Virus record (IMG/VR): IMGVR_UViG_3300042261_000976
Location: 4,627 to 68,626 of that record
Source of the DNA: a virus
DNA: 64,000 bases
Reading direction: 5' to 3' (one strand)
Shown here: piece after piece, positions 1,417-53,166 of the stretch
Numbering within the stretch: position 1 is the stretch's first letter
Layout: every line of letters begins with the position of its first letter
Made by a program: the position numbers and the translations under genes
Notes under the pieces: model-generated
Databases searched by the model: none
Told to the model about the DNA's origin: nothing
What the model saw: the letters and a program-made list of their open reading frames with translations, nothing else

Positions 1417-1624
1417 TTTTTTTATATGTTCTCCTATATCAAACTTATTCCATATTATATAAAGAGGTTTATCAATTTTGAAATAATCTTCTAATTTAGG
1501 AAGACCTGGAGGACATTTATCTTTTCCCCAATTTGGACAACCTTTTGGAAGGTTTTCTACAAAGACCTCTAACTGAATAATCTATAACTGGATCAACTTT
1601 AGTGTACATATATTTTTATATATT

Positions 1625-1646
1625 AAAAATTAATATATAAAAATAT
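1625..1646 (+). promoter_or_regulatory. putative promoter TTAATATATAAAAATAT
   Basis: motif immediately upstream of ATG 1647. Confidence 0.3.
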
Positions 1647-2291
1647 ATGAAGACATTCTCTAATATAATTAAAGAAGCTAAATATTTTGAAGGAACACAA
1701 ATAGTTCAAATGACAAAAGAGCTATGTGCTAAATATTTGAACGATATTAAAGAACTTAATATAAGAGAAAGAGAATTAAACGAATATGAATGGCATTTAT
1801 GGTCAGATAAAGATATAATGATGGATCTTCCTATGAAATGGGAAATGAGTTATTTAATATTACTTGGGGATAAATTTATAGGATCACAAATCAATACTCA
1901 AAAAGAAACAAAAGATGGAGAAAAATTCATTCATACTAATAGAGTTATAATAGATAAAGATTATAGAAATTTTAAATTGTTATGGGAACTTTATCAGAAA
2001 TTATATGATAATTGTAAAAAACATGGTTTTAAATATTGCACTTGTTTCACACCATCCTTCAAAGTAAAAGAATTAAATACAAATATTCTTGGAATGGAAT
2101 TAATTAAAAACGGTGATATAGTAAGCCATTTCATAACATCTATAAAATGGCTATCAATGGATAATGATGGTAAACTTCATTACGAAGACGGTGATATGGG
2201 ATGGTATTTCATGATAAAAACCTTTCATGGAAATTTTCCAAAATTAGAAAAATCAAAAAAGACATTCATAGATAAGTCCCCATATTTATAA
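1647..2291 (+). CDS. hypothetical protein with CTS-like N-terminus MKTFSNIIKE
   Basis: ATG ORF preceded by TTAATATATAAAAATAT motif. Confidence 0.5.
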   Translation: MKTFSNIIKEAKYFEGTQIVQMTKELCAKYLNDIKELNIRERELNEYEWHLWSDKDIMMDLPMKWEMSYLILLGDKFIGSQINTQKETKDGEKFIHTNRVIIDKDYRNFKLLWELYQKLYDNCKKHGFKYCTCFTPSFKVKELNTNILGMELIKNGDIVSHFITSIKWLSMDNDGKLHYEDGDMGWYFMIKTFHGNFPKLEKSKKTFIDKSPYL

Positions 2292-3911
2292 TTACTTTAG
2301 ATATTTAATCGCATCTAAAAAATATTTAGGCATCATCTTCCTATTGTATCTTAATATATCATCAAAAGAACTATCTAATATAAAAGTGTGACTCCAGTCA
2401 GTATCACTTCTGGTAGATCTACCATACGCTTGAACTATATCTACAATAGTTCTCCAAGCATACCAATCCTTTTTTGATTTCTGTCTAGCTTTAACCTTAT
2501 TACTCGAAATGTTTGGATAAGGAACTTTCAACAATATCTGAAATCTACTTAAATCATCATCCATAGAAATTCCAGAAACCATTGATGGTGAAACTATTAC
2601 ACCATTCTTTTTCTTCTTCATTTTATCAAGTTGTTTCTCTCTATCTTCTGTTTCGTGGAATATAAGACGTTTATCGTCTATTGCATTTTCTAACCATTTA
2701 GCAATTTCATAATTGGTTGTATGTATGATTCCTCTATTATCTTTATATTTTGCTAATATTTTATTTATTACTTTTAATTGTTCTTTGAAGGTAGCTTCCT
2801 TTTTTTCATAAGTCATTTTCCCAGCTTGGTAATAATATAAAGGGCGATTTTTGACAGGAAATGTAGAATCTACTTCAAAATAGTCAGTTAAATCTTCATC
2901 AAATCCATTAAGATAAGAAAATATATTTTTGTCTAAAATAGAACCACTCATAAATATCACATGGTCATATTTGCTCCAAATAAAATCATCAAGATAAACA
3001 TGTCCCCATATTGGTTGTAAATTAAGTTCTATTTCATTCAGTTTGCTCTTTGTAATATCAAGAGTCCAATTATATTCATTCTTTTCAAAATCTTTTAATA
3101 ATCCTTCGAAATTCTTTTCTGCACTATCAATATTAACAATATAATTAGCGTGAGCGGCTTTTAATTTTTCATTTGGAACATCAGAAAGAGTATCTATGAA
3201 ATGTTGTTTTAATTCTGCCAGATACGGTATGAAATCTCTTTCTAAGAAACTTATAAATCCACCCGGAGTTTTTATTCCAGCAAACTTACGAATATACGAA
3301 TCAACCACTTGATCTTCAACTCCATATAGTTTTAGAGCTCTTGGGCTTAATTTTACTGAAATAAAATCGCAGAAAACAGATTCAAAGTCGTGAGCTTCAT
3401 CCACTATTAAAACGTTAGCAGATCTTTTTTGCATTGTTTCTGGAACGAAAAATGCAAAGCTATTGAATAGATGGAAATTTGTTAAAGACATTGTTCCTTC
3501 TGTCCAAGCTTCTTTTGCTGCGTCATATTGACAACTGGCGCATGGCATAAGTTTAGATGCTCTATTTAATTCTTTACCTGTATGACAATCCGTTTTGTGT
3601 CTAATACACTTATAATTAGATTGTCCTCTAAGGTCGTTTATGGAGTCGAATTCCTTTTTATATTGTTGTTGTAGTATTTTGCTATTAGTAATAATATCAA
3701 ATTTTGCTGATGTGTTTATGTAATTTTTATACCAATTCATAAACATCATAGCAAAATAGGATTTTCCAGAACCTGTTGGGGCATTCAATAAAATGAATTT
3801 CTTACCATTATTTATTGAATGTTTAGTGAGATTGAATATCTCAATTTGTTGTTCTCTTGGTTTATATTTTAATGGAAAATATATCTTTAATTCATCGTCT
3901 ATAGAAATCAT
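2292..3911 (-). CDS. DinG/XPD (Rad3)-family ATP-dependent DNA helicase with FeS cluster
   Basis: PREQQ, APTGSGKS Walker A, DEAH box, 4-Cys cluster CIRHKTDCH..CASC, C-terminal AYGRSTRSDTD motif. Confidence 0.8.
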   Translation of the reverse strand: MISIDDELKIYFPLKYKPREQQIEIFNLTKHSINNGKKFILLNAPTGSGKSYFAMMFMNWYKNYINTSAKFDIITNSKILQQQYKKEFDSINDLRGQSNYKCIRHKTDCHTGKELNRASKLMPCASCQYDAAKEAWTEGTMSLTNFHLFNSFAFFVPETMQKRSANVLIVDEAHDFESVFCDFISVKLSPRALKLYGVEDQVVDSYIRKFAGIKTPGGFISFLERDFIPYLAELKQHFIDTLSDVPNEKLKAAHANYIVNIDSAEKNFEGLLKDFEKNEYNWTLDITKSKLNEIELNLQPIWGHVYLDDFIWSKYDHVIFMSGSILDKNIFSYLNGFDEDLTDYFEVDSTFPVKNRPLYYYQAGKMTYEKKEATFKEQLKVINKILAKYKDNRGIIHTTNYEIAKWLENAIDDKRLIFHETEDREKQLDKMKKKKNGVIVSPSMVSGISMDDDLSRFQILLKVPYPNISSNKVKARQKSKKDWYAWRTIVDIVQAYGRSTRSDTDWSHTFILDSSFDDILRYNRKMMPKYFLDAIKYLK

Positions 3912-3961
3912 AAACCATATATTAAGAAAAAGAAATAATGTTTTAGTAAAAAATTTAAAAC

Positions 3962-3988
3962 AAAAAACCCAGTTTTCACTGGGTTTTA
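3962..3988 (-). terminator. intrinsic terminator hairpin (cccagt-tttc-actggg) flanked by A-run/T-run
   Basis: perfect 6-bp stem plus T-run on minus strand immediately 3' of gene 3994..4227. Confidence 0.5.
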
Positions 3989-3993
3989 GTTTC

Positions 3994-4227
3994 TTAAGAT
4001 TCTTTAATTTCCTTTTTCTTTACGACCATCACTATTAAAGCTATGATAGCAAGGATGTCAAAAATGAAAAGACCGCTACCATACACGTCAACAGTGCCAC
4101 CAGACATACCAACGCTATATCCTATGATCATACCAATAAGCACTGCTGCTCCAACAGGAATCAGGGAAAGCCATTTCCACCCGTTTCTCCAAGCGAAAAT
4201 TGTTAAAATAATTTCGATTAATAACAT
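3994..4227 (-). CDS. small membrane protein (2 TM)
   Basis: ORF with two hydrophobic helices, followed by terminator. Confidence 0.4.
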   Translation of the reverse strand: MLLIEIILTIFAWRNGWKWLSLIPVGAAVLIGMIIGYSVGMSGGTVDVYGSGLFIFDILAIIALIVMVVKKKEIKES

Positions 4228-4299
4228 AGTTTAAGTTTTAAATTGTTAATATTAAAAGTTATATTTTCAAAAATACTAAAAGTTTTTTGTTAAAAAAAA

Positions 4300-4334
4300 T
4301 TAATATATAAATATTATAAAATAAACTCAATATA
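4300..4334 (+). promoter_or_regulatory. putative promoter, TTAATATATAAATATTATAAAAT motif
   Basis: shared TTAATATATA core 25-35 nt upstream of many ATGs. Confidence 0.3.
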
Positions 4335-4499
4335 ATGATCAAGAAATATAATGATTTTATAAACGTTTCAATAAACGAACAATATTATGATTACAGTCAG
4401 GATAGAAAATTCAAAGTGCCCGTTAGATTAAATAATGATGATGAACCATATCGAATAGTAGCAAGACAATTAGACGATTTACAAAGAGCCGAAATATGA
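4335..4499 (+). CDS. small ORF (54 aa) MIKKYNDFINVS..., CTS-like leader
   Basis: ATG ORF below track cutoff; ATGA overlap with next gene; promoter motif upstream. Confidence 0.3.
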   Translation: MIKKYNDFINVSINEQYYDYSQDRKFKVPVRLNNDDEPYRIVARQLDDLQRAEI

Positions 4500-4780
4500 G
4501 TAAAAACGATAAAATAATAAAAAAATTTAGTATCTTTGAGAATAAAATCTTTGGATTTAAATCTTTAGATTATGTTGATAGTTTTGCAGAACTCTTTACC
4601 GTTATATCTGAAATGAAAAGAAAAAAGATAATAGACGGTGAAGGGAATTTATTAATTGATCCATATGAAATAGGGCATAAAGTTCCAGGGTTTGATGATT
4701 TATTCGAAGAGACAGAAGATTATTTTGCAACTTTAGCTATAGTTAAAGATATACTAGATAAGTATTATAAAGTTATATGA
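4496..4780 (+). CDS. hypothetical protein
   Basis: track ORF, ATGA-coupled to neighbours. Confidence 0.45.
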   Translation: MSKNDKIIKKFSIFENKIFGFKSLDYVDSFAELFTVISEMKRKKIIDGEGNLLIDPYEIGHKVPGFDDLFEETEDYFATLAIVKDILDKYYKVI

Positions 4781-5358
4781 TAAAGACATTTGAAGAATAT
4801 GATTACGTTCACGATAATAGTTTAGTTTGGGTAGTTGGAATCCCAAGCGGTGAGGCTTTACAAATACCACACGAGAACCTAAATCCTCTTTACGCTGAAA
4901 AATTAATATGGTACGATAATAAATATACTGGCGTTGGATTCTACGCCTTTAATGATGACGACATTTCCTTAGTTAAAAGATATATATCCCCTCCTAAAAA
5001 ATCTAAAGATTTAAAAGTTGTTCCACCAAAAATGAAAACAACTAATGGTCCTGATATAATGATATATAATCATCATTTTGATGATGCTTTGATAGATACA
5101 ATTGTTGGTATTATGCACGATTATCCAACAGAAATAGAACTTTATGTCCAAGACGAATGTATGGGCATAACATATGGTGATTATTATATCGAAATAGATT
5201 TAGAAGAAGGAAGAAGCCCTAGATATAGATTGGTAAAAAGACGTAATCTTTCATTCTCTTCTATAGGAATGGGAACAGGTTCCGATATTCTAGACAAATA
5301 CGGAGTATCTACTGATAGACAATTAATAGATAGAATAGAAACGGAATTATACACTTAA
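4777..5358 (+). CDS. hypothetical protein, N-term MIKTFEEYDY
   Basis: track ORF; CTS-like leader. Confidence 0.5.
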   Translation: MIKTFEEYDYVHDNSLVWVVGIPSGEALQIPHENLNPLYAEKLIWYDNKYTGVGFYAFNDDDISLVKRYISPPKKSKDLKVVPPKMKTTNGPDIMIYNHHFDDALIDTIVGIMHDYPTEIELYVQDECMGITYGDYYIEIDLEEGRSPRYRLVKRRNLSFSSIGMGTGSDILDKYGVSTDRQLIDRIETELYT

Positions 5359-6027: not shown

Positions 6028-6031
6028 GGTT

Positions 6032-6538: not shown

Positions 6539-6581
6539 TTAGAATGTTTTTATTGTATATATAAATTGATTGAAGGTCTAA

Positions 6582-7007: not shown

Positions 7008-7015
7008 ATTTTTTT

Positions 7016-7630: not shown

Positions 7631-7783
7631 ATTTGCGAATTTTTATTTTAATATATATATTAAAACTTAAAAACCGATTATGATTAAAAGATTTAATATT
7701 TTCGAACAACATGTTATAGACATGGAAAAATTAGAGAAGAAGATTGGGATGAAACAGATCTTAAAGTCGGCGATTATATAAAA

Positions 7784-7981: not shown

Positions 7982-7984
7982 AAT

Positions 7985-11083: not shown

Positions 11084-11169
11084 ATTCTTATTTTATTTTT
11101 TTGAATAAGTATATATCAAAAATTAAAAAGCATTTTTTAATATATAGCATATACGAAAGAAATCATAAT

Positions 11170-13751: not shown

Positions 13752-13753
13752 AT

Positions 13754-14062
13754 ATGGACGGTTGTATGCAAGGCGGAATTAATGTAAGAATTATAGATAG
13801 TGATCCTTTATCTATAATAAATGATTTTGCCAGTAACGTAAATATTGTATATAATGGAGAAAAGAAGAATCAAAATCAACTCCTAAATGAATTATATTAT
13901 AAAGATTATAACAAATATAATAGAAATACAGGACCTTCAATGCCTCCACAAAATCCATTATTAAAAAAGCATGTCGATATTCCAGATGAGCCAAAACCAA
14001 TTGAACCAGGACAAGTTGATCCTGCCGCATTTTTTGGAAGTAGTTTGAAAGGGTTGTTTTAA
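13754..14062 (+). CDS. hypothetical small protein
   Basis: track ORF. Confidence 0.3.
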   Translation: MDGCMQGGINVRIIDSDPLSIINDFASNVNIVYNGEKKNQNQLLNELYYKDYNKYNRNTGPSMPPQNPLLKKHVDIPDEPKPIEPGQVDPAAFFGSSLKGLF

Positions 14063-15219
14063 TAATTACACACAAAAGGAGTACTATATAATCCAGTTTT
14101 TTTATCCTTTTTATAATTTTTGCTATAGTTGTAGTAATTAGGTATAACATGAAATGAATCTGTGTATGGCAAATTGAAATTTTTTGGATCGTTCGTTGGT
14201 GATACTAGAGTAACTATGAGTTTTTCGTGTGGATATTTTTTCCCAATATTTTTATACATCAACATATTATTTTTATTGGCATAATTTTCTAATTGGACTC
14301 TAGCAGCACCATCTGATGAATAAATCCTATCCATATAAACTCTACCATCGTCCAACCTCCATATTAATGCCCTTGCTAATAATTTATTTTTCTTAATATA
14401 TGTGGCCATTGCTATTTGATCTGGATATAGATCATAGAATTTTACTCTATATTGGGTGGAATCATATCTCATACAAGAATTATTGAGTGTTCCTCCTCCT
14501 TTTTTATATCTTTTTTCTTGATACCAATAGGATATATCATCTCCTGTAACAACTCTCAATTCTCCGCCTTTTTGATTGGCTTCATATTCAGCTTTATATT
14601 TATTTGAAAATTCTTCTATTTCAGGATCTTTAAGATCTGGATTTAATTTTCTAAGGAGTCTTCCAACTTTAGTTTGTTGACGAAATTTTTCAATATCTTC
14701 ATATGATTTATCAGCCAAAGCGACTTTTTTTGCTGGAACAAAAGATATATTATCTGCACTGTCTTTAACAATATCGAAATATGAAACGTCGAAGTATTCT
14801 CCCTTTTTTTTGAATTTTATCTCTTTTAGAATTTTTAAAAAATCTTTTGTAGCTTGAAATTTATATAGTTCACCAGCATTTAATTTTCTTTCAAGTTCAT
14901 CTTCTTTGGCTGCTTTTTCCGCGTTCTGTTTTTTCCATTCTTCTAATTTTTCGTCAGTAAATATTTCAACATTTTTTAATTGATATTTAGACAACTTTAC
15001 TTTCCCCTTTTTAATATAATATGATTTAGGAGCATCTTCAACTTCAAATACTATTACTTCTTTTTTTATGTCTATTACAGTGCCAATTTTACCGTCTAAC
15101 TTTACTTTATCTGCGCCATATCTAGAAAGGTCATATTTACCATTGAATAAGACTTTTGATCCTATTTCAAAATCTCCTATTTTTGCCTCATTTATAAAAT
15201 TTGAATAATCTAAAAACAT
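14059..15219 (-). CDS. paralog family member 2 (GGGTLNNSCMRY domain)
   Basis: FRQQTKVGRLLRKLNP..VTGDDISYWY..GGGTLNNSCMR..LLARALIWRLDDGRVYMDRIYS. Confidence 0.6.
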   Translation of the reverse strand: MFLDYSNFINEAKIGDFEIGSKVLFNGKYDLSRYGADKVKLDGKIGTVIDIKKEVIVFEVEDAPKSYYIKKGKVKLSKYQLKNVEIFTDEKLEEWKKQNAEKAAKEDELERKLNAGELYKFQATKDFLKILKEIKFKKKGEYFDVSYFDIVKDSADNISFVPAKKVALADKSYEDIEKFRQQTKVGRLLRKLNPDLKDPEIEEFSNKYKAEYEANQKGGELRVVTGDDISYWYQEKRYKKGGGTLNNSCMRYDSTQYRVKFYDLYPDQIAMATYIKKNKLLARALIWRLDDGRVYMDRIYSSDGAARVQLENYANKNNMLMYKNIGKKYPHEKLIVTLVSPTNDPKNFNLPYTDSFHVIPNYYNYSKNYKKDKKTGLYSTPFVCNY

Positions 15220-15273
15220 AAATTTAATTTATTTTAACCGTAAATTATTTTAAATTTATTTGATTTCAATTTA

Positions 15274-16455
15274 TCAATTTGATAATTGTAAACCTGGAAT
15301 CGCCTGATTTGAAAGAACTAAATCACCATCTTTTCTATAAACATGTATAAATGTATCAAAATACGGACGATAAGCATTATCTTTTGTTTTTAATGTAACT
15401 ACCATTTTGCCTTTACCTTGTTGTGTATCTCTTCTTGTTATCATATTAAATTTTTTAGCATAATTTTCCAATTGAACTGATGCTTCTGCTTTAACTGAAT
15501 ATATTCTATCCATATAAACTCTACCATCATCCAATCTCCAAATTAATGCCCTTCCCCACAATCTATCATTTTTAATATAAACTGCCAGTGCGACTTTATC
15601 TGGAAATTTATCGTAAAATTTAACTTGTGTTTGTGCAAATTCTCCTCTCATACAAGAATTATTAAGAGAACCACCACCTTTTTGATAATGTTTTTCATGA
15701 TACCAATAAGATATATCTTTTCCAGTTACAACTTGTATGTCTGGAACAGTGAATAAAGTTTCAACATACGCTCTAAAATTAGCAACATATTCTTCTATTT
15801 CTTGGTCATTTAATTTAGGATTTAATTTCCTAAGAATTCTACCAACTCTAGTTTCTTGTCTGAATTTTTCAGGATCTATTGGTTTTTCTGGTTTCTTTCC
15901 TTTTTCTGTATTTATTTTCTTAGATGGAATGAAACTTACCATATCTGTTTTTCCACTAACTACATCAAAGAAAGAAGAATCAAAATATTCACCAATTTTT
16001 TTGAATTTTATATCTTTCAAAACAAGATTAAAATCTCTTGTTGCTTTGAATTTATATACTTCACCGGCTTTAATTTTTCTTTGTAATTCTTCGTATTCTG
16101 GAGTAAGAACTATAAAATCTTTGAAATAATAATTTTCTACTTTTATTTCTGTAAGTTCATAATCTATTTGAATATCTACCTTAAAACCATTTCTTGTGAA
16201 TAAATCTATTTTATATTTTATTGGTTCATCTAAAGTGAAAGTTATAAAAGTAGATTTACCATAAGAACGTTGTGATTTCTCCTTAGTTATTTCTTTTACT
16301 GTTCCAGTTTTATCTAATAAATTTACTTGTTGTCCATACTTCGGTTCATTATAATAAGACATTCCTGGTCCTTTAAATACAACCTTTGAACCTACTTGAA
16401 AATCAAATATTTTAGAAGCAACTTCATTCAATAGGTCATTAAATCCATAAATCAT
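15274..16455 (-). CDS. paralog family member 3 (GGGSLNNSCMRG domain)
   Basis: same C-terminal domain and similar N-terminal half as 14059..15219. Confidence 0.6.
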   Translation of the reverse strand: MIYGFNDLLNEVASKIFDFQVGSKVVFKGPGMSYYNEPKYGQQVNLLDKTGTVKEITKEKSQRSYGKSTFITFTLDEPIKYKIDLFTRNGFKVDIQIDYELTEIKVENYYFKDFIVLTPEYEELQRKIKAGEVYKFKATRDFNLVLKDIKFKKIGEYFDSSFFDVVSGKTDMVSFIPSKKINTEKGKKPEKPIDPEKFRQETRVGRILRKLNPKLNDQEIEEYVANFRAYVETLFTVPDIQVVTGKDISYWYHEKHYQKGGGSLNNSCMRGEFAQTQVKFYDKFPDKVALAVYIKNDRLWGRALIWRLDDGRVYMDRIYSVKAEASVQLENYAKKFNMITRRDTQQGKGKMVVTLKTKDNAYRPYFDTFIHVYRKDGDLVLSNQAIPGLQLSN

Positions 16456-16488
16456 CAGATAGAGTTTTTTCTTCTATATATAATTATT

Positions 16489-20853: not shown

Positions 20854-21153
20854 AATTTTGCGTATTTTTTTTGCATTATTATTGCTATATATTAAATAAT
20901 AAAAACAAAAAATCAAAAGAGGTTAATCGGGATTTTTGGAAAAGGTGATTCGTTACAAACAGAATATTATTAACAATTTCTAATTAGATATAGACTTGTT
21001 ATAGTTGCCATAGTAAAACTAATATAAATAGAGAAAATTGGCAAACTTTTTTCGATAATATTATAAAAGAAAGATATGACAAATTGACATACGATATAAT
21101 TGGCATAGAAATTGATAAATAAAAATAAAATTAATGTAAAAGAAAGGAAAAAA

Positions 21154-21176
21154 TATGAAAGGAAAATGTATTGGGA
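21154..21176 (+). CDS. dnaK: DnaK (Hsp70) exon 1: MKGKCIGI(D)
   Basis: encodes the canonical DnaK N-terminus MGKIIGIDLGTT.. when joined to 21432. Confidence 0.65.
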
Positions 21177-21431
21177 TTAAATAGATCGGTCCCCTTATTC
21201 AGTAATGAATAATGATAAAGGCTTAAACTGCTGGAATCCCCTTAGAGCTTTTTTAACTACAACATAATTTGAAAAAATAAGTGTGAAAGTTTAAAAATAA
21301 AAAAGATTGGGCAATCAGCATCCAAACATCGTATAGATGGAGGTTCAGAGACTATAATAGCCAATCCTTAAAGGATTATTGTATAGTCCAGACTACAAAA
21401 GAAATTGCTTATGAAAGTAAGTGTAGTAAAG
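21177..21431 (+). other. group I self-splicing intron (255 nt, no ORF) interrupting dnaK
   Basis: exon ends in U pairing with G of internal guide GGTCCC (P1: gggaU/Gtccc); intron ends in G; P7-like GTTCAGAGACTATAA (21343-57) and GTATAGTCC (21381-89) resemble the Tetrahymena P7 strands. Confidence 0.65.
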
Positions 21432-23277
21432 TGATTTAGGGACTACGTTCTCGGCAGTTGCAGTTATGGAAAATGGAGTACCTACAATTATTGTAAATAG
21501 TGAAGGAGAAAGAACAACTCCTTCTGTTGTCGCTTTCCTTGATAAAGGAGAGCGAAAAATTGGTAATCCAGCTCGTAGACAGGCTGTTACAAATAGTAAT
21601 AAAACTGTTCATTCCATTAAGAGGTTTATGGGAGAACATTATGATAGACTAACAAATGAAATTGATCGTTATGCTTATAAGGTAGTTAAGAAACATGATA
21701 TGCCTTATATTGAAATTGATAAAAAGGAATACTCTCCACAGGAAATTAGTGCAGTTATTCTTCAAAAGATGAAAAAAACTGCCGAAGACTATCTTGGTCA
21801 AAAAGTTGAAAGTGCTGTTATTACTGTTCCAGCATGGTTTAATAACGATCAACGTCAAGCTACAAAGGAAGCAGGTGAAATTGCTGGATTTAAAGTAGAA
21901 CGTATTATTAATGAACCTACTGCTGCAGCTTTGGCTTATGGGCTTGATAAGTTGAAGAAAGATATGAAGATTGTGGTTTTCGACTTTGGAGGTGGAACAT
22001 TTGACGTTTCTGTTCTTGATTCGGGTGATGGTGTATTTGAGGTTAAATCTACATGTGGAGATGTCCACTTAGGAGGTAACGATGTTGACGACGTTATCGT
22101 TGACTGGTTAGTAGATGAATTCAAGAAAGACAACGGAATAGATTTGAGAAAAGATCCAATGGCTTATCAAAGATTGAAAGATGCAGCTGAAAAGGCAAAG
22201 ATTGAACTTTCTTCTAATACAGAAACAGAAATAAATCTTCCTTATATCACTGCCATAGATGGCATGCCAAAGCATATGGTATCTAAATTGAGTATAAGTA
22301 AATTCGAACAAATTGCTGACAGTGTATTTAAGAGACTTATTCCAATTAGTGAAAAAGCTCTTAGGGATTCAGGAATAGAAAGAGATAAAATTGATGAGGT
22401 TATTCTTGTTGGTGGTTCAACTCGTATTCCAGCAGTTCAGAAAATAGTAAAAAGTATTTTTGGAAAAGAACCTAATAGAAGTATTAATCCTGACGAAGCA
22501 GTTGCTTGTGGAGCAGCAATTCAAGGTGGAATTATTAGTGGTGAAGTAACAGATATTCTTCTTCTTGATGTTACTCCTCTTTCACTCGGTATTGAAACAA
22601 TGGGTGGAGTAATGACAAGATTAGTAGAAGCTAATACTACAATTCCAACAGAGAAATCACAAATATTCTCTACCGCTTCTGATAATCAGCCATCTGTAGA
22701 AATTCATGTTCTTCAGGGTGAAAGACCAATGGCGAGTCAGAATAAGACTTTAGGTAGGTTTCATTTGGATGGTATTCCACCAGCTATGAGAGGTATTCCA
22801 CAAATTGAAGTAAAATTTGACATCAACGCTAATGGTATTCTTGAAGTTATAGCTATTGATAAAGCAACAGGAAAGAAACAGAACATTAGAATTGAGAATT
22901 CTTCAACTCTTCCTAAAGAAGAAATCGAGAGAATGAAGAATGAGGCAAAAGAAAATGAGGAAAACGATAGAAAAGAAAAGGAAAAGATAGATAAGCTCAA
23001 CCAAGCAGATTCGATGATTTTCCAGACCGAAAAACAAATCAAAGATTTCGGAGACAAATTGACAAACGAAGATAAGAACAATTTGAACGAATCTCTTGAT
23101 AAATTGAGAACAGCACACAAGGGTCAAAATTTAACAGATATTGACAATTGTATGAAAGAATTAAATGAAAAATGGAATTTGATTTCAACTCGAATGTATC
23201 AACAAACATCTTCACAACAACAGGGACCAAAAGAAGAACAACCTGTAGAAGATGTAGAATTTCAAGAGGTTAAGTAA
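21432..23277 (+). CDS. dnaK: DnaK (Hsp70) exon 2, bacterial DnaK type
   Basis: [54 protein letters not shown]-terminal EDVEFQEVK; near-collinear with E. coli DnaK. Confidence 0.9.
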
Positions 23278-24999: not shown

Positions 25000-25082
25000 G
25001 TTTTTTAAGTTTACGATTTAATGCTATATATTATTTTTTTTAGACAGTTCTTTTTAATATCTTTGTAAAAATAAAACTGTAA

Positions 25083-41110: not shown

Positions 41111-41123
41111 AATACTATATATA

Positions 41124-43313
41124 TTATTTTAAACTCAATATTCCATTCAATCTTTTACCTGTTCCGCAGTCTATTGGTGTTTGTGCCTTATTAGCACTTG
41201 CGAATATTTGATTACGCATTCCAGGGAAATAATTATCAATCCAATCTGTAGATTCGAATGTATAAAAACATCCTACAGCTGAAGGAATTTTTGGAGGAAG
41301 AACTAACAATTGATTTAAACTTTGTTTCTTCAAAGCTCCTTTATCATAAGCTAACAATCTAAAATCAGCAGCAGCAACTTGTGCGTTGGCTTGTAATTCA
41401 TCAAAAGGCGAAGAGTTCTTTAATTTGTTATTTCTAACATACATATAAAACATTCTTGTATTCTTAGTAGTTAAGACACCAGATTGAGATGGGTTTATTC
41501 TATTAAAATTAGTAGATGCTATATAAACGCCATTTAATAAATAACTTTGTTCACCAGGCACATATCTTATATCACCTTTGAAAAATTCATCATTAAATTT
41601 CTTATCTCCTTTTTGTTTGAAAGCCAAATTATTTATATCGAATATACAACTGGAATAATTTCTAGCCTCTTTTGGGAAATTTGGATCTTTTTGTTTATCA
41701 TCCTTTTTAATTCTCTCTATATCTATGTTACCTACATATTTATAAATAGATTCACCGCCAGAATTATGTAATTGTAAAACTGGATAATAAATCTGGCCTC
41801 CAATACTATATTGCATTACAAATAATCCTCTTTCTTGTTTCCATTCCTTTTCTTTGAAGAGTTTTAATCCAAAACCACCTTCTTCTATTTTTTGAGTAGT
41901 ATCTATAGGAATAGTATTGTTATTCATTCTTTTATAATAATCTTCTAACATAGGATCTCTTTTTCTATAAGCGTCTTGTAAATTCATAACTCTAAAAGGA
42001 TCAATAATATCTACATTTAGAAAATATGTCCATTGTCCTTTGACAGCATCAACTTTTCTTTCCCATACACTTCTTAAAGCTGAATCCTCATTAAAATCAA
42101 CTGCACCACCGACAGGAGGAGTCATTCCTTTGTAAGTTGGAGTTTGTTTAGTATGAAATATCATTCTTGCAGCAGCGTATTGTATTTTTCGAACACCTTC
42201 TACTGTTACCATTTTTGTTGCTCCTTCTTTGAATTCGGGATGTTTGCTCCACAATTCAGCACATCTTCCAAAGTCAATTTCGTCAACACTATTTATTCCT
42301 ATTGATTTAAGATATTCATAAGGTTTAACTTTTCCTGTGGTTGAACCACTAGTGCCACCAGGAACAGTATTTAATGTGTCACCAAGAACTTGCATTATTG
42401 GAACTTTAGGATTTAATTTACTTGTTATTTCTTCTAATAAAAATCCTTCAAATTCGCCTTGATAATCTTCTTGTGTTGGTTGTTCAGGTTCTGGTTGTGC
42501 TGGTGCTGGAGGATTTTCAGAGATTAAATTATTAATTTCTTGACATTTAGTTTTAATGGGTTCATTTTTACTAGTTATTAAAACATTAATAATTTTTTTC
42601 TCATTTTCTGTTAAATGATAATCTTTACAAGCTTTAGCGTCGCCATTTAAAAACGCTATTACTTGATCCAGTAAATCTATAATTATCTTTTCTTTTTCAG
42701 GATCGAATTGTTGCTCACTGTGGGTACAATATGGTTGTAATACAGCGAAAACATCTTTATTAATTTTCAATTTTATCTCTCCATATTTAACAGCCAATTC
42801 AGCTTGCTCTAACATTTCTTTCAATTCCTTCATGTCTTCTTCTTCTATATCGCCTTCATTCATTTGATTTCTTATAGTAGCTACAAATTCTTTGAATTTA
42901 CTTATAGTTTGTGCTAGAACATTCAAATTATCTTCAGAATAATCCATGTGCATAACTTCACAAATAAATGGATATTCCACATCATCATTTTGTTGTTGTG
43001 CAGGAGTTACATCAGCGTTAGCTTCTCCTTCTTTTTGAACCGCTTTTTCAACCATAGTACCATCTTTAATATTGATTTGTTTAATAGCACAAAATCTTAG
43101 CCAACCAGCAAAATATTCATTTTCTAGTTTTCTTTTAAGGTATTCTAATCTACCGATATCTATTCCTTGTTTGAAATATCTTAATATGCTAAATAAACCT
43201 CTACCAACCAAAGATTGAGAGAATTTTGTAGCATTTGAGAATTCATCCGGAATAGATGCCTCTTCTAATAATTTTTTAAATTTTTCAAAAGGTACTATAT
43301 TATCAAGTTCCAT
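41124..43313 (-). CDS. hypothetical large protein (729 aa), possible structural protein
   Basis: track ORF; no recognisable motifs. Confidence 0.55.
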   Translation of the reverse strand: MELDNIVPFEKFKKLLEEASIPDEFSNATKFSQSLVGRGLFSILRYFKQGIDIGRLEYLKRKLENEYFAGWLRFCAIKQINIKDGTMVEKAVQKEGEANADVTPAQQQNDDVEYPFICEVMHMDYSEDNLNVLAQTISKFKEFVATIRNQMNEGDIEEEDMKELKEMLEQAELAVKYGEIKLKINKDVFAVLQPYCTHSEQQFDPEKEKIIIDLLDQVIAFLNGDAKACKDYHLTENEKKIINVLITSKNEPIKTKCQEINNLISENPPAPAQPEPEQPTQEDYQGEFEGFLLEEITSKLNPKVPIMQVLGDTLNTVPGGTSGSTTGKVKPYEYLKSIGINSVDEIDFGRCAELWSKHPEFKEGATKMVTVEGVRKIQYAAARMIFHTKQTPTYKGMTPPVGGAVDFNEDSALRSVWERKVDAVKGQWTYFLNVDIIDPFRVMNLQDAYRKRDPMLEDYYKRMNNNTIPIDTTQKIEEGGFGLKLFKEKEWKQERGLFVMQYSIGGQIYYPVLQLHNSGGESIYKYVGNIDIERIKKDDKQKDPNFPKEARNYSSCIFDINNLAFKQKGDKKFNDEFFKGDIRYVPGEQSYLLNGVYIASTNFNRINPSQSGVLTTKNTRMFYMYVRNNKLKNSSPFDELQANAQVAAADFRLLAYDKGALKKQSLNQLLVLPPKIPSAVGCFYTFESTDWIDNYFPGMRNQIFASANKAQTPIDCGTGKRLNGILSLK

Positions 43314-43411
43314 ATATTTCTTTTATTTTTAACGCTGAATTTCTTTAATATATATTAAAAAATAAAATCCGTTTTTCAGTTTTAATATATACTGAAAAAT
43401 ATTGAAATTGC

Positions 43412-44218: not shown

Positions 44219-44225
44219 AATTATA

Positions 44226-44498: not shown

Positions 44499-44508
44499 AG
44501 ATTATTAA

Positions 44509-46298: not shown

Positions 46299-46300
46299 AT

Positions 46301-46714: not shown

Positions 46715-46733
46715 TTCTTCTATTATTATTTTT

Positions 46734-47057: not shown

Positions 47058-47058
47058 A

Positions 47059-47328: not shown

Positions 47329-47343
47329 AACATATTTTTATTC

Positions 47344-47366
47344 GTATATATTAAATAAAAAATGTC
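47344..47366 (-). promoter_or_regulatory. putative promoter (TTTAATATATACGAAT on minus strand)
   Basis: same TTAATATATA core ~20 nt upstream of ATG 47328. Confidence 0.3.
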
Positions 47367-47396
47367 AAAAATGTCATTTTTGATAAAATTTTTAAA

Positions 47397-48281: not shown

Positions 48282-48590
48282 TTAATCTTCTAATTTTCCA
48301 TCTTCAAACCATCTAACATCATCTTCTGGAGCTTTTTCATAGGCAACATTGAGTCTACTGGTACGTATCCTAATATATTCATTTTCATCGTCGAATAAAA
48401 AAGCATTATTTCCTTCTAATTCAATTATTTCGTATTGAACACTTGGATTTAAGTTATATTGTCTTCCACAAACATATGGGTCAACATATACCATATCTCC
48501 AATTTTAAATGATTCTCCTTCGTCGAACTCTGGTTTAGATCTTATTTTACCGTCACCAAATTGTTCAAATAAAATTAAATGGTTTAACAT
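48282..48590 (-). CDS. hypothetical small protein MLNHLILFEQF..VDPYVCG
   Basis: track ORF; promoter motif upstream. Confidence 0.4.
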   Translation of the reverse strand: MLNHLILFEQFGDGKIRSKPEFDEGESFKIGDMVYVDPYVCGRQYNLNPSVQYEIIELEGNNAFLFDDENEYIRIRTSRLNVAYEKAPEDDVRWFEDGKLED

Positions 48591-48632
48591 TTTTAATTTT
48601 TTTCTTTATATATTAATTTTATGAAATGATTT

Positions 48633-49319
48633 TTACATCATAAGCGTCTTCATTATAAAAAAACTATCTATGATGTCATCCCATGGCTTAGGAACATTTT
48701 TCAATTTTAAGAGATCACATTTATATTTTTCTAAAACTTTGGATAATTTATCTTCACCATTTAATTCTATTAGAGCTTTCATCATATCCTTTTTGTCAAA
48801 ATCTCCGCCAGCGACTCCTTCTTTATTTTTATTTATTTTTTTGTTTTTGGCTTTTGGACTCAATTCGAATCCATAAACCAATTCTGCTGTTTTAGATTTA
48901 ACAGTCATAGGAGATATGATTATTAATTTATCCAATCTAGGGAGTTGTAAAATCTTCAATCTTAATAGAGTACTGAAGGTAACAATATCAATTATAGAAT
49001 TTGTATTTTTTAATCTATAATTATAACCTTCTATCGCTATGATAGTTTTCTCCTTTTTGTTAATATTTCCCTTTATTTTTTCATAAATTAAGTCTGTCAC
49101 ATGATCAAACTCTCTTAGTTTCATTATCTCACTTTCAGTATAATTGTCAATATCTTTATATGTATAATTTATAAATTCATAATCAATAGCCTCCATTGTC
49201 TTTTTAATCCAACCGGCATTTCTCTTTTGAACTGTAAAATTTAAAAATATAACTTCATCATCTCTGAAAATAGACATACCAGTCGAATCTATTGAAATAT
49301 CTATACCTATTAAGTTCAT
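48633..49319 (-). CDS. RuvC-like (poxvirus A22/phage type) Holliday junction resolvase
   Basis: MNLIGIDISIDSTGMS N-terminal RNase H-fold motif; acidic residues IAIEGY and ..D.. Confidence 0.5.
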   Translation of the reverse strand: MNLIGIDISIDSTGMSIFRDDEVIFLNFTVQKRNAGWIKKTMEAIDYEFINYTYKDIDNYTESEIMKLREFDHVTDLIYEKIKGNINKKEKTIIAIEGYNYRLKNTNSIIDIVTFSTLLRLKILQLPRLDKLIIISPMTVKSKTAELVYGFELSPKAKNKKINKNKEGVAGGDFDKKDMMKALIELNGEDKLSKVLEKYKCDLLKLKNVPKPWDDIIDSFFIMKTLMM

Positions 49320-49378
49320 TAACTTTAATTATTTTTTATCTTACTTTTTTTATATATAGATAAAAAGTGGATCGAATT

Positions 49379-52312
49379 ATGATTAAATTGTTAGTTATTG
49401 AAGATCACCCAAGTATGATTTCCGGTTTAGAATGTTTATTAAAAGGAGATGTGGAAGTGACATTTTCATCTAATGATATGGATAATGCCTTGAATTTCGA
49501 TCATACTAAATTCGATATAATATTATTAGATTTATTATTACCAGAGACAAACCCTATAAATAATGTTAAGAGATTAAAAGAAATTTATCCAAACCCCATT
49601 GTTATATTTACTTGTGAAGATTCTAATTTATGGAAGAAAAAGATGTTTGATATTGGTGTCATGGGTTATTTAATCAAAACATCTAATAAGGAAAAAATAG
49701 TAACTACTTTACATCAAGTTTTAAAAGAGTTTAAAAGAGATAAAGAATTGCAATATCCAAACTTGAAAATATGTAATCTAGATTTTTTTAATTTTTTAGA
49801 TGATATGTTTTTTGTTTTAGACTTAAAGGGAAACATTATAGAGTATAATACAAGTGTAACAAGAAAACTTAGATATTTAAAAGAAGATTTGATTGGTAAA
49901 AATATACAAAAATTTTTCAATAGTGATGTATCTTCTATTTTTACTGGTGAATATTCTAATAAAAGAATTCCAATTTTAAATTCAGATGGAAATAGTTTAT
50001 TCGTAGAAATACGAAGTTTAAAAATACACGCTAGATGTAGCTTAGAAGATTATTTATTAATAGTAGCGAAAGATATAGAAGCAGAGGAGAAATATAAAAA
50101 TATTTTTGATAATTCTACTCAAGGAATTTTTCAATCTACAATGGATGGGAAGTATATTACAGTAAATCCGGCTTTTGCTCAATTATGTGGATATGAAAGT
50201 CCTGAAGAATTATCTACTAGTGTTAAAAATATTTCAGATCAAATATACGCAAATAAAAGCGATAGAGATCAATTTCTAGATACATTATTAAAATATGGTA
50301 AAGTAAAAAATGCCGAAGGACAAATCAAAAGAAAAGACGGCGATAAAATATGGGTTTCTTGTAGTGCTAAATTAATAAAAAATAAAGACGGAACACCATT
50401 ATACATAGATGGTATAATAGATAATATCACAGATAAAAAAGATACAATAGAAAATTATATTTCTTTATTGAAAGCTATTCCGGATATGATGGTCAGAGTG
50501 AGAAAAGACGGTCTTATTATGGATATAAAACCAGGTGAAGGAACATATTCTGAATTAGGACAATCTACTCATTACATAGGTGGAAATATAGGGAATTTAC
50601 CGTTTGGTGATGTAATAACGACTAAATTTAAAAATATTATAAAAGAGGTTATTGAAAAAGAAGAACCTATTGAATTTTGTTATGCTATTTTTATTAAAGG
50701 AATTGAAAGGAATTATTATTCAAGAACTGTAAAGAATGGTGAAAGTGAAGTTATAGTAATAGTCAGAGAAATAACAGAAGAAATAAATATAAGAAATGAT
50801 TTAACATATTCCAGAGATTATTCTGAAAATATAATCAATACAGCAAATGCCATGATTATAGAATTAGATAATAGTGGCAATATAATCACTTTCAATAAGG
50901 CAGCTGAAGAGGTTACTGGATATAAAAAAGAAGAACTTTTTGGTAAAAATTGGTTCGAAACATTATGTCCCAAAGATAGATTCCCTCATGTGTGGGAAGA
51001 ATTCAATGGATTGATGAAACAAAAAATAGAGGCTAAAGACTTTGAAAATCCAATTCTTACAAAGAGCGGGGAAGAGAGATATATTGTTTGGAAAAACAAT
51101 GAAGTAAAATCTAATAATAAAGTCGTGGGTGTAATATCTTTCGGTCTTGATATAACAGAAATGAAAAAGACATCGGAGGAATTAAAAATAGCCAAGGAAA
51201 AAGCAGAGCAATCAGATAAAATGAAATTAGAATATCTTTCTAACATGAGTCACGATCTTCGTACCCCAATGAATGCTATTATAGGATTTACAGATTTATT
51301 AAGAGCTAATAATCTAACCAAAAACGAAAAACACGATTATATTAATACTATTATAAATAACGGTAAATATTTGATGGCTCTTATAGACGATATTATTGAC
51401 ATTTCTAAAATTGACGCTGGAAGTCTTAAAGTAGAAAATAGAGATTTTGAAATAAATAAACTCATGGAAGAACTTCGTCTTTCATATATAAAACAAATTA
51501 AAGATAAAAATATAGAAATTATAATAGATATAGATGTTAATAAAAATATTATAATACAATCTGATAAATATAGACTAAGACAAATTATGGCAAATCTTAT
51601 AGGAAACGCTATAAAATTTACAAACGATGGTTATGTCAAATTCGGATATAAAATACTGAATAATAGAATGTTAGAAATATATGTTGAAGATACAGGTCCA
51701 GGTATAGAGAAACAAAATCAGAAAATAATTTTTGAAAGATTTAAGCAATTAAATGATACCAATAAATATAAAGGAGCTGGACTTGGTTTGTCTATAAGTA
51801 AATCTTTGGTTGAACTATTAGGATTTAAAGAAATAAAATTAGTATCTGAATTTGGTAATGGTAGTAGATTTTATTTTAATGTGCCTTACGATGTGAAAAA
51901 TTTTACTTATATGTCTGATATTAAAGAAAGAAAACATAAGAAAATAAATTTTGCTGGAAAAAATATTCTTTTAGTAGAAGATAATAGAGATAGTAGAACA
52001 ATTATGAAATCTTATCTACAAGATACAAAAGCCAATGTTATAGAAATGAAAGATGGTATTGGTATATTAGATGTTATAAAAGAAAAAGAAATAGATTTAG
52101 TTTTATTGGATATTGGTCTTCCTGGAGGTAAAAATGGTTATGTAATATTAGAAGAAATAAAAAATTATGATAACAGATTACCAGTTATTATAGAATCAGC
52201 TTTAGCTATGCCGGATCAAAAAAATAAGGCATATGATTTAGGATGTGATGATTTTATATCCAAACCTTTCAATAGGGAAGATTTTCTAAACAAAATAGAT
52301 AACTTACTATAA
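49379..52312 (+). CDS. hybrid sensor histidine kinase: REC - 3x PAS - HisKA - HATPase_c - REC
   Basis: start at ATG 49379 (MIKLLVIEDH); ILLDLLLP Asp pocket; MSHDLRTPMNAI H-box; NLIGNAIKFT / DTGPGI / GAGLGLSISK N,G boxes; C-terminal ILLVEDN..LVLLDIGLPG receiver. Confidence 0.8.
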   Translation: MIKLLVIEDHPSMISGLECLLKGDVEVTFSSNDMDNALNFDHTKFDIILLDLLLPETNPINNVKRLKEIYPNPIVIFTCEDSNLWKKKMFDIGVMGYLIKTSNKEKIVTTLHQVLKEFKRDKELQYPNLKICNLDFFNFLDDMFFVLDLKGNIIEYNTSVTRKLRYLKEDLIGKNIQKFFNSDVSSIFTGEYSNKRIPILNSDGNSLFVEIRSLKIHARCSLEDYLLIVAKDIEAEEKYKNIFDNSTQGIFQSTMDGKYITVNPAFAQLCGYESPEELSTSVKNISDQIYANKSDRDQFLDTLLKYGKVKNAEGQIKRKDGDKIWVSCSAKLIKNKDGTPLYIDGIIDNITDKKDTIENYISLLKAIPDMMVRVRKDGLIMDIKPGEGTYSELGQSTHYIGGNIGNLPFGDVITTKFKNIIKEVIEKEEPIEFCYAIFIKGIERNYYSRTVKNGESEVIVIVREITEEINIRNDLTYSRDYSENIINTANAMIIELDNSGNIITFNKAAEEVTGYKKEELFGKNWFETLCPKDRFPHVWEEFNGLMKQKIEAKDFENPILTKSGEERYIVWKNNEVKSNNKVVGVISFGLDITEMKKTSEELKIAKEKAEQSDKMKLEYLSNMSHDLRTPMNAIIGFTDLLRANNLTKNEKHDYINTIINNGKYLMALIDDIIDISKIDAGSLKVENRDFEINKLMEELRLSYIKQIKDKNIEIIIDIDVNKNIIIQSDKYRLRQIMANLIGNAIKFTNDGYVKFGYKILNNRMLEIYVEDTGPGIEKQNQKIIFERFKQLNDTNKYKGAGLGLSISKSLVELLGFKEIKLVSEFGNGSRFYFNVPYDVKNFTYMSDIKERKHKKINFAGKNILLVEDNRDSRTIMKSYLQDTKANVIEMKDGIGILDVIKEKEIDLVLLDIGLPGGKNGYVILEEIKNYDNRLPVIIESALAMPDQKNKAYDLGCDDFISKPFNREDFLNKIDNLL

Positions 52313-52329
52313 ATATAAAAAATAAATAC

Positions 52330-52617
52330 TTGATTATGAATTATGCAGTAATGGAATTAAGAAGAAAGCAGATTAATGATTATATGTCTTCAATAGAATT
52401 GAACGAGAGTTCTATAAGTGTTAGTCAAATTAAAAGTGATTTGCAAAATATTCTAGGTGAAAAACCAGGAATAGAACTAAAATACAAATCCGACGCAGTA
52501 ATGATGGAAGGCAAAGAAAAGAAAAGAAAAAAAGGAATACTAGAATCTATTACTATTTTCTATACATACGAAGAATCTGATGGTCCTCATTTTGATAGGG
52601 TTTCTTATTTTATCTAA
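52330..52617 (+). CDS. hypothetical small protein
   Basis: track ORF; followed in the same frame by TAA, 4 codons, TAA, then 82 stop-free codons. Confidence 0.35.
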   Translation: MIMNYAVMELRRKQINDYMSSIELNESSISVSQIKSDLQNILGEKPGIELKYKSDAVMMEGKEKKRKKGILESITIFYTYEESDGPHFDRVSYFI

Positions 52618-53107
52618 AAAATAATAATTTAAATTGATACTAATAAAGATCATCAAGGACTTAAGAAAATAGAAAATCTGATTAAAAAATCACCAGTTGG
52701 TAATATAGAAGGAAGAGACGAATTTAAGGCAGAAAGACAAATTCTTGATGCTTTGAAACCTTATAGATATAAGGAAATAGGAGACAAACTTCTCAATAAA
52801 ATAAAAAATCATTTTTTAGAAAATGATAAATATACTGAATCAAATTACGAATTCCATCCTGATGATAATTCCAAATGAATCTTTTATAGAAGGAATTGGA
52901 AGTTTTAAAGAAACTAAAAAAATAGTAAGATTAAAAAAAGGTGGTCCCGCCGTCGTAAAAGAACTTAAAAAATTTTCTTTTCCGTTTCCTTTATTTTATT
53001 TTCTGTATTCTCTATACATCTTTAGAGATATCAAAATCTTCCTTCATCGTTAAATTGTCTAAATAATCGTAATCTTAGGTATTATCACTAAAAAATAATT
53101 TTTTAAT

Positions 53108-53166
53108 TTTAATATATAAAAATATAAATTTAATATATAAAAATATATAAAAATAAATTTAATCTT
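53108..53166 (+). promoter_or_regulatory. putative promoter region with 3 tandem copies of TTAATATATAAAAATAT
   Basis: direct repeats immediately upstream of ATG 53167. Confidence 0.3.

Follow-up and report, generated by a model that had tools for sequence, protein, structure and literature searches.

The DNA analyzed here is a stretch of 64,000 nucleotides (nt), hereafter the window, taken from the IMG/VR virus record IMGVR_UViG_3300042261_000976 (positions 4,627 to 68,626). It has 29% G+C and is 92% coding under the standard code, with intergenic DNA of about 22% G+C. The window is syntenic over its full length with LR756501, at 65 to 80% nucleotide identity. The latter is a 735,411-bp phage from Lac Pavin, which belongs to the Mahaphage clade and has a predicted host among the Bacteroidetes (PMC7162821). 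The window represents part of a megaphage genome from the Mahaphage clade. The genes that could be recognized encode a helicase, an Amidase_2 lysin, a TPM-domain protein, Hsp70, a DnaJ-zinc-finger protein, a major-vault-protein-like protein, an NMNAT/MazG protein, a RuvC-like protein, a hybrid histidine kinase, a 5'-3' exonuclease and an M16 peptidase; the remaining genes are mostly ORFans. Ten of these ORFans had no match in PHROGs. A protein of 1,335 amino acids (aa) matched neither Pfam nor PHROGs, and a search of viral contigs with it gave no relatives. The window had no tRNA match and no Rfam match.

About twenty operons of the window are preceded by an AT-rich signal, TTTWATATATA (where W is A or T). 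The evidence below indicates that this signal is genuine and conserved, and very probably a promoter; in a megaphage lineage, it represents what seems to be a previously undescribed form of the T4 late type. An earlier description of it was not found in the literature on huge phages or megaphages and their promoters, which, given the incomplete coverage, is weak evidence of novelty.

Shared motif upstream of operons

A first-pass annotation of the sequence had proposed that a promoter-like motif is shared by many start codons on both strands. De novo motif discovery, a position weight matrix (PWM) and a dinucleotide-matched background all support this proposal. The string TTAATATATAM (M, A or C) occurs 10 times in the window, against 1.09 +/- 1.05 expected, and 37 of the 65 strand-collapsed occurrences of ATATATA fall within the 7.6% of non-coding DNA, a 17-fold concentration. 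Expectation maximization (EM) under the zero-or-one-occurrence-per-sequence (ZOOPS) model on 48 upstream regions led from every seed to TTTTAATATATAAAAA, with a log-likelihood of 73.1 versus 50.2 +/- 4.1 for dinucleotide shuffles (5.6 standard deviations above). To avoid circularity, a 22-nt PWM was built from LR756501 alone and then applied to the window, where it gave 21 intergenic matches scoring 13.5 bits or more. After dinucleotide shuffling, these intergenic segments gave 0.23 +/- 0.49 matches (maximum 3 in 300), and an order-3 Markov model of intergenic DNA gave 0.70. The loss of enrichment against a background of matched composition had been named as the outcome that would count against the motif, and the enrichment persists.

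The orientation of the motif is strict. None of the 22 matches in the window lies in coding DNA or in a convergent gap; 12 are in divergent gaps, and those in co-directional gaps are 8 in sense and 0 in antisense orientation. The 167 matches in LR756501 are distributed similarly (15 coding, 72 in divergent gaps, 3 in convergent gaps, and 77 sense versus 0 antisense in co-directional gaps), and 34 metagenome relatives gave 30 sense versus 2 antisense matches. Both in the window and in LR756501, divergent gaps often hold the motif as back-to-back pairs. The motif is also found at the head of operons: it precedes 20 of the 47 window genes (about 43%) whose upstream gap is 25 nt or longer, versus 1 of the 44 with smaller gaps. 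In LR756501 it precedes 42 to 64% of the genes with gaps of 25 to 150 nt, in each 25-kb bin of the genome, and 3% of those with gaps under 10 nt. Each of the 11 orthologous upstream regions compared between the window and LR756501 retains it, with nearly unchanged spacing. Identity is 94% over the motif versus 61 to 62% in the flanks, and a second conserved patch is found at the putative start site. The motif is likewise prominent in a relative with 47% G+C. By its strict orientation, its position at operon heads and its conservation against diverged flanks, the motif very probably behaves as a promoter.

A single TATATA promoter in LR756501 precedes a long, tightly packed operon at 311 to 337 kb. 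This region, placed from gene numbers, was considered as the capsid region and rejected, since it holds a cluster of glycosyltransferases, a nucleotide-sugar epimerase, a radical-SAM enzyme and methyltransferases, and no virion genes.

A separate class of promoters emerged from a de novo search of the 228 LR756501 upstream regions without the motif. It reads TTATaTTTGTA, which corresponds to TAnnTTTG; a T-tract precedes it by about 20 nt, near -33, and its sense bias is 51:19. The Bacteroidetes sigma-A promoter has T-12 A-11 H H T-8 T-7 T-6 G-5 (H, not G), followed by 4 to 5 nt to the start site, and TTTG at -33, and the TAnnTTTG class agrees with the Flavobacterium consensus (PMC6847099). Its presence in LR756501 backs the assignment to a Bacteroidetes host. 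Moreover, it is separate from the TATATA box, which shows that the latter is a different, phage-specific class. The TATATA motif itself departs from the Bacteroidetes sigma-A -7 box, as it reads TATATAV (V, not T) where T-8 T-7 T-6 G-5 are nearly invariant. The earlier view that the motif is unlike the Bacteroidota sigma-A pattern is thus borne out, and so is the view that it is unlike the Escherichia coli -35/-10 pattern, whose bipartite matches are not enriched in the window (134 versus 145 +/- 15).

The motif could still be an artifact of composition, given the low G+C of the window and of its intergenic DNA, or a plain host sigma-A promoter. With the promoters of sigma-A (sigma-ABfr) it shares the host phylum, a TA at the start of the downstream element and a short distance (4 to 5 nt) to the start site, and TATATA has TAnnT in common with the first five positions of the host -7 box. 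We find this explanation scarcely credible. The enrichment withstands both dinucleotide shuffles and the order-3 Markov control, the sense orientation in LR756501 is exclusive, the motif occurs in a relative with 47% G+C, and it lacks the nearly invariant TTTG, while a true TAnnTTTG class with its T-tract exists apart in the lineage.

The window itself has five intergenic TAnnTTTG boxes in the correct orientation, 17 to 40 nt before start codons, which are candidate host-type sigma-A promoters by their sequence: 217-224 (plus strand), 1440-1447 (minus), 4268-4275 (minus), 25058-25065 (plus) and 61816-61823 (minus).

Sites in the window and anatomy of the box

The sites of the window, which span 1616 to 63330, are given below. 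Scores are bits under the PWM trained on LR756501, and distances are from the core to the start codon. L001 is a further relative.

1616-1627, minus strand: promoter motif TTTAATATATAA, 16.9 bits; divergent partner of 1629-1640; the next annotated gene start (1416) is 200 nt off
1629-1640, plus strand: promoter motif, 15.7 bits; 7 nt to ATG 1647, leaderless-type spacing
3915-3926, minus strand: variant motif TTAATATATGG, low PWM score; 4 nt to the helicase ATG 3911, leaderless-type; TATATG-N4-ATG also in LR756501
4299-4310, plus strand: promoter motif, 10.4 bits; 25 nt to ATG 4335
6555-6566, minus strand: promoter motif, 14.4 bits; 17 nt to ATG 6538 (operon with the Amidase_2 gene); conserved in LR756501
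7647-7664, both strands: palindromic TTTTAATATATATATTAAAA, 13.6 (minus) and 14.8 (plus) bits; 23 nt to ATG 7630 (minus) and 22 nt to a small open reading frame (ORF) at 7680 (plus); conserved
11109-11120, minus strand: weak variant TTTGATATATAC, 7.6 bits; 26 nt to ATG 11083; variant retained in LR756501
11136-11147, plus strand: promoter motif, 12.2 bits; 23 nt to ATG 11170
16474-16485, minus strand: promoter motif, 16.5 bits; 19 nt to ATG 16455; conserved in LR756501
20885-20896, minus strand: promoter motif, 15.0 bits; 32 nt to ATG 20853; motif at the syntenic place in L001
25024-25035, minus strand: promoter motif, 14.4 bits; 25 nt to ATG 24999 (DnaJ-zinc-finger protein); syntenic copy in L001 at 9596
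34293-34304, minus strand: promoter motif, 16.6 bits; 18 nt to ATG 34275; conserved in LR756501 with equal spacing
38359-38370, minus strand: promoter motif, 16.4 bits; 23 nt to ATG 38336 (1,335-aa protein); inverted repeat on either side; conserved
41115-41126, minus strand: motif AATATATATAG; 5 nt to ATG 41110, leaderless-type; at the stop codon of the upstream gene; without orthologue
43344-43359, both strands: palindromic TTTAATATATATTAAA, 13.8 and 13.9 bits; minus copy 35 nt to ATG 43313; conserved
43381-43392, plus strand: promoter motif, 16.9 bits; 20 nt to the GTG start 43412; motif in L001 21 nt before a TTG start
47344-47355, minus strand: promoter motif, 17.4 bits; 16 nt to ATG 47328; upstream tandem TGACA-N4-TGACA box at 47360-47373; conserved
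48606-48617, minus strand: promoter motif, 18.0 bits; 16 nt to ATG 48590; syntenic copy in L001
49348-49361, plus strand: plus copy of an overlapping divergent pair, 18.0 bits; 20 nt to ATG 49379 (hybrid histidine kinase); conserved
49348-49361, minus strand: minus copy of the same pair, 10.2 bits; 31 nt to ATG 49319 (RuvC-like); conserved
53108-53150, plus strand: three tandem copies with cores at 53113, 53134 and 53144; 17.0, 16.6 and 12.5 bits; 48, 27 and 17 nt to ATG 53167
55852-55863, minus strand: motif AATATATATAG, 10.5 bits; 5 nt to ATG 55847, leaderless-type; LR756501 has TTTAATATATAG-N4-ATG
55919-55930, plus strand: promoter motif, 15.9 bits; 20 nt to ATG 55950
57918-57931, both strands: overlapping pair; minus copy 15.5 bits, 20 nt to ATG 57900; weak plus copy 10.3 bits, 68 nt to ATG 57997
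63278-63289, minus strand: promoter motif, 14.1 bits; 19 nt to ATG 63259 (M16 peptidase); conserved
63319-63330, plus strand: promoter motif, 17.0 bits; 22 nt to ATG 63352 (ORF running off the window); upstream TGAC-N5-TGAT box

These sites include the instances that the first-pass annotation had placed at 1629-1646, 4300-4322, 11141-11160, 43345-43360, 43383-43398, 49340-49358, 53108-53160 (three copies) and 55925-55945, and on the minus strand upstream of 6538, 7630, 16455, 38336, 47328 and 48590. Upstream of 3911 the motif is present, but with a variant core, TATATG, 4 nt before the ATG, as in the relative. The instance at 57915-57960 is borne out in part: its first copy scores 10.3 bits on the plus strand and overlaps the stronger minus-strand site, and its second copy is weak (6.8 bits). 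The copy placed upstream of 29657 is not borne out, with a best score of 5.1 bits. The span given earlier for the motif was 1621-53166, but the sites reach 63330. Those absent from the earlier list lie upstream of 11083, 20853, 24999, 34275, 41110, 43313, 49319, 55847, 57900, 63259 and the plus-strand ORFs 7680 and 63352.

Two observations touch individual sites. A 30-aa ORF (MYTKVDPVIDYSVRGLCRKPSKRLSKLGKR; 1520-1609, minus strand) begins 7 nt past the core at 1616-1627 and may be a small leaderless gene below length cut-offs. The inverted repeat at 38345-38380 (minus strand) reads GGCAGCG ... TGTAGCC in the window and GGCTGCG ... CGTAGCC in LR756501, where the stem is 7 bp including one G-T wobble. 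The two arms flank the box, one upstream and one within the leader, and on this arrangement an operator seems more plausible than an RNA hairpin.

A logo built from 217 sites gives TTT-W-A-TATATA-V. Measured from the end of TATATA, the spacing to the start codon has two modes over 41 loci, with 89 sites at 4 to 7 nt, 139 at 17 to 23 nt and 21 between. The second mode is broad (about 16 to 25 nt), and the first appears in LR756501 as a sharp peak at exactly 5 nt (36 sites). At positions +6 to +8 from the end of the core, leadered sites carry AAA (91, 90 and 85%), and leaderless-type sites carry ATG at the same positions. AAA is present at 14 of the 22 window sites, and the leaderless-type genes of the window start at 1647, 3911, 41110 and 55847. 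Either the ATG or a conserved A is thus found 6 nt past the core, which places WATATATA at -13 to -6 if transcription is initiated at this A, as the simplest reading of the sequence would have it. Two kinds of mRNA would be implied, one leaderless and one with an A-rich leader of about 10 to 20 nt. The logo has no -35 element: counted from the putative start, every position between -61 and -27 stays under 0.3 bit. An archaeal- or eukaryotic-type TATA box (TFIIB) about 25 nt before leaderless genes was also considered and rejected, since the motif is also found 5 nt from ATGs, the mode at 16 to 25 nt is broad and no matching polymerase was found.

About 10% of the sites are an exception to the single-box rule and carry an extra GGAAAA..ATGAC box, often as a tandem TGAC-N5-TGAC, 14 to 18 nt upstream of the core. 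This subclass is found in the window at 47360-47373 (minus strand) and 63303-63315 (plus strand) and in LR756501 at 71,915-71,945 and 73,850-73,885, and includes both head-gene promoters of the latter (portal; protease/capsid). The box is a candidate activator site that may mark a distinct temporal subclass.

The repeated TGAC half-sites of this subclass could also suit a motif that is not a core promoter, being either an operator for a phage transcription factor or an RNA-level signal for translation or processing near start codons. The TATATA core is palindromic, with extended palindromes at 7647-7664 and 43344-43359, and its 5-nt spacing to the ATG is like that of a Shine-Dalgarno sequence. 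Yet a translation signal would be needed before intra-operon genes too, where the motif is nearly missing (1 of 44 in the window; 3% at gaps under 10 nt in LR756501), and the second spacing mode is unsuited to a ribosome-binding element. In addition, the flanks are asymmetric (TTTWA before the core, a non-T base followed by AAA behind it) and keep their position relative to the core and not to the ATG. We regard this explanation as very unlikely.

Candidate reading factor and related promoter systems

The first-pass annotation had pointed to a resemblance with T4 late promoters and had suggested a search for a gp55-like sigma factor. The search was positive in the closest complete genome, LR756501, where positions 69,450-69,824 encode an unusually well-conserved protein of 124 aa. 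The family of this protein aligned with the T4 gp55 family with an hhalign probability of 92.6% (E = 4.7e-7), and its profile, run against 177,635 PDB sequences, had as top match gp55 (7d7c_F, E = 0.018), the gp55 chain in an open complex of the gp55-dependent RNA polymerase with a promoter. The same chain was the top Foldseek match in PDB to the AlphaFold model (predicted local distance difference test score [pLDDT] of 82.8; template modeling [TM] scores of 0.71/0.65; root mean square deviation of 2.3 A), and the next matches were sigma region 2 domains. The link to gp55 requires such profile-profile and fold comparisons because direct searches remained below threshold. A gp55 sequence used as query gave sub-threshold matches only, and a collection search with a gp55 alignment had only close T4-like proteins among the matches listed. 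The gp55-like gene is present in all Lak megaphages, in other phages above 460 kb, and in two cultured phages, Tenacibaculum phage pT24 and Sphingomonas phage PAU. We consider it likely that this 124-aa factor reads the motif.

The gp55-like gene of LR756501 has as its neighbors the genes of an endonuclease-VII-like protein, a gp4-like head completion protein, a T4-like portal (Portal_T4, 1e-69), a prohead protease and the major head protein. The TATATA box precedes both the portal gene and the protease/capsid operon. Directly after the gp55-like gene is a small ORF at 69,840-70,040 (MDKDKKILFNFRIHKELYNYLSRKSKDNYTTMTQYIIDLIKKD...), the first gene behind a promoter with the upstream box, whose product by eye resembles a ribbon-helix-helix DNA-binding protein.

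Our favored reading, to which we give a probability of roughly 0.7, is that the motif is a phage-specific promoter core of the T4 late type, read by the gp55-like factor on the host polymerase. The host RNA polymerase core, together with the phage gp55-like sigma factor (a sigma region 2 domain only), would open a box of T-16 T-15 T-14 W-13 A-12 T-11 A-10 T-9 A-8 T-7 A-6 V-5, a single AT-rich element without a -35. Transcription would begin at the A six nt downstream of the core, and the transcript would either be leaderless, with this A being that of the ATG, or carry the short A-rich leader. A short or absent leader fits a host without Shine-Dalgarno sequences. We infer the position of the start site, the protein that reads the box and the timing of expression.

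Late transcription in T4 depends on the sigma factor gp55, the co-activator gp33 and the sliding clamp gp45. The T4 late promoter is an 8-bp box, TATAAATA, at -13 to -6, with A or T common at -13 and without a -35, used in both polarities. In T4-like phages, late promoters precede late genes only, and the box varies within the family (e.g., CTAAATA in Aeh1). The resemblance noticed earlier holds: in both systems a single AT-rich 8-bp box without a -35 lies one helical turn upstream of the start (here a predicted one), on both strands and with A/T-rich sequence downstream, and WATATATA agrees with (T/A)ATAAATA at 7 of 8 positions when the common A(-13) variant is used. Furthermore, the lineage has a region-2-only gp55-like protein and T4-like gp20, gp4, protease and capsid genes behind the motif. 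The differences are also clear. The exact TATAAATA consensus is not that of the megaphage box, which has T instead of A at -9, and TATAAATA is not concentrated in the intergenic DNA of LR756501 (42 of 253 occurrences). The megaphage box adds a T-tract at -16 to -14 and, in the register proposed here, a conserved AAA at +1 to +3; about 10% of its sites have the upstream GGAAAA..ATGAC box, and a sizeable class is leaderless. It precedes many non-structural genes, with well over 150 sites in 735 kb versus about 50 in T4. Finally, the gp55-like protein is shorter than gp55 (124 aa versus 185 aa), and the alignment shows it to be without the C-terminal clamp-binding segment.

LR756501 also encodes a sigma-70-family protein of the extracytoplasmic function (ECF) type at 491,201-492,070, with regions 2 and 4 (Pfam Sigma70_r2, 2e-10; Sigma70_r4_2, 7e-7; PHROG 1740). 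This protein is conserved in each of the five phage records longer than 630 kb and could read the motif instead of the gp55-like protein, working like gp36 of phiEco32. The middle/late promoters of the latter (tAATGTAtA) are likewise single elements without a -35, with the start site 6 to 8 bp downstream, used by a phage sigma factor on the host core, and share 8 of 9 positions with TAATATATA. Nevertheless, the ECF-like protein has region 4, which normally reads a -35 that most sites lack, whereas phiEco32 gp36 is a sigma-70-family protein without region 4; a protein with region 2 only, such as the gp55-like one, suits a promoter with a -10 element alone. The gp55-like protein, which has no region 4 either, is of a family other than that of gp36. 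A 40-kb sample of LR756502 has almost no motif although this phage has the ECF-like sigma gene. PhiEco32 is a small E. coli podovirus with six such promoters, versus hundreds of sites here, and there is no homology evidence tying its gp36 to the megaphage lineage. A role of the ECF-like protein as reader is therefore unlikely in our view.

The reader might instead be a highly divergent phage RNA polymerase that escaped recognition, by analogy with the early promoters of phiKZ and AR9 or with the virion polymerases of crAss-like phages. The virion polymerases of jumbo phages use conserved AT-rich motifs of about 10 nt centered near -10, which are computationally detectable before many operons, and the lineage has many very large ORFan proteins, such as the 1,335-aa protein of the window. 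However, the readers in phiKZ and AR9 are virion-packaged multisubunit polymerases, and such genes are not detectable here: six-frame translations of LR756501 and of the window had no DFDGD/NADFDGD motif, and phmmer found nothing in them that matches beta, beta' or T7 RNA polymerase, although very divergent enzymes could escape these searches. The T4-like head genes and the gp55-like factor of the lineage also argue against a phage polymerase. In addition, T4-like "group 2" jumbo phages, among them the Prevotella megaphage Lak-B8, have been described as lacking an RNA polymerase and encoding sigma factors and a gp33 orthologue (Iyer et al., PMC7824862). A phage polymerase as reader is very unlikely.

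Several points weigh against the favored reading of a T4-late-type core served by the gp55-like factor. The gp55-like gene is absent from the window and is known from a relative at about 70 to 80% nucleotide identity. The T4-family gp55 profile had no significant direct match (best E = 0.063), and T4 gp33, used as a single phmmer query, gave nothing below E = 2.5. The ECF-like sigma factor of LR756501 is another possible reader. The register of -13 to -6 would follow from the leaderless ATG and the conserved A, and the gene starts come from a simple longest-ORF caller and are hence crude. The motif also precedes replication, repair, chaperone and signaling genes, so it may not be specific to late expression. 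Finally, two carriers of the gp55-like gene have little or none of the motif: it is scarce, nearly absent in its strict form, in the 40-kb sample of LR756502 (343.7-384.2 kb), where the top de novo motif is host-like, T-rich and ends in TTTG, and 40 kb sampled from Tenacibaculum phage pT24 show no enrichment of it. Lak-B8, which also encodes the gp55-like protein, shows a modest enrichment (51 versus 31 +/- 7). The sequence of the box thus seems to be lineage-specific and, since all three phages encode the gp55-like protein, may co-vary with the sigma factor.

The motif, if real, had been proposed to define a single temporal regulon. This proposal is not supported by the analysis, in which the motif precedes the helicase, RuvC-like, 5'-3' exonuclease, DnaJ-like, amidase and histidine-kinase genes in the window and the portal and capsid genes in LR756501, with the boxed subclass making up about 10% of the sites. 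The coexistence of host-type and phage-type promoters in one genome implies a transcription cascade. This cascade is not readable from the two sigma genes of LR756501, neither of which has a promoter of either class upstream. We tentatively suggest that the T4 late-promoter mechanism may have grown from a few dozen virion promoters until it served as the chief transcription signal of a roughly 0.7-Mb genome, with two layers (the bare core, and the core with a GGAAAA..ATGAC box marking true virion genes) and a large set of leaderless mRNAs. If this were true, leaderless mRNAs would be produced in a Bacteroidetes host, where mRNAs are reportedly mostly leadered, and the phage would direct how both transcription and translation are initiated.

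The motif, its register, the predicted start and the leader classes provide a usable promoter model for uncultured and almost wholly ORFan megaphages, which enables operon maps and the correction of gene starts (e.g., GTG 43412). The Mahaphage/Lak clade is tied to T4 late transcription at the level of the DNA signal as well as through a gp55-like protein. Specific, testable predictions are the leaderless class and the subclass with the upstream box. The strict motif is apparently limited to one lineage and may thus help to sort metagenomic contigs.

Other features of the window

Some features of the window deserve mention apart from the motif. The gene at 30785-33202 (minus strand) encodes an 805-aa protein with the shoulder and repeat domains of the major vault protein (Pfam MVP_shoulder, 1.6e-27), which is unusual for a phage, and is the best conserved gene between the window and LR756501 (78% nucleotide identity). 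The hybrid histidine kinase is phage-encoded at 49379-52312 (plus strand), behind one of the strongest copies of the motif, and has three PAS domains, HisKA, HATPase_c and a receiver domain. Two genes in tandem at 14059-15219 and 15274-16455 (minus strand) encode paralogues of 386 and 393 aa; both match one gene region of LR756501, which is duplicated there too. A non-coding stretch of 612 nt upstream of the Hsp70 gene (20854-21465) had no Rfam match and lacks both promoter classes in the last 75 nt before the start codon. Finally, a perfect hairpin with a 13-bp stem and T-runs on both strands (59762-59791) resembles a bidirectional intrinsic terminator between convergent genes, and a similar terminator precedes several promoters of LR756501.

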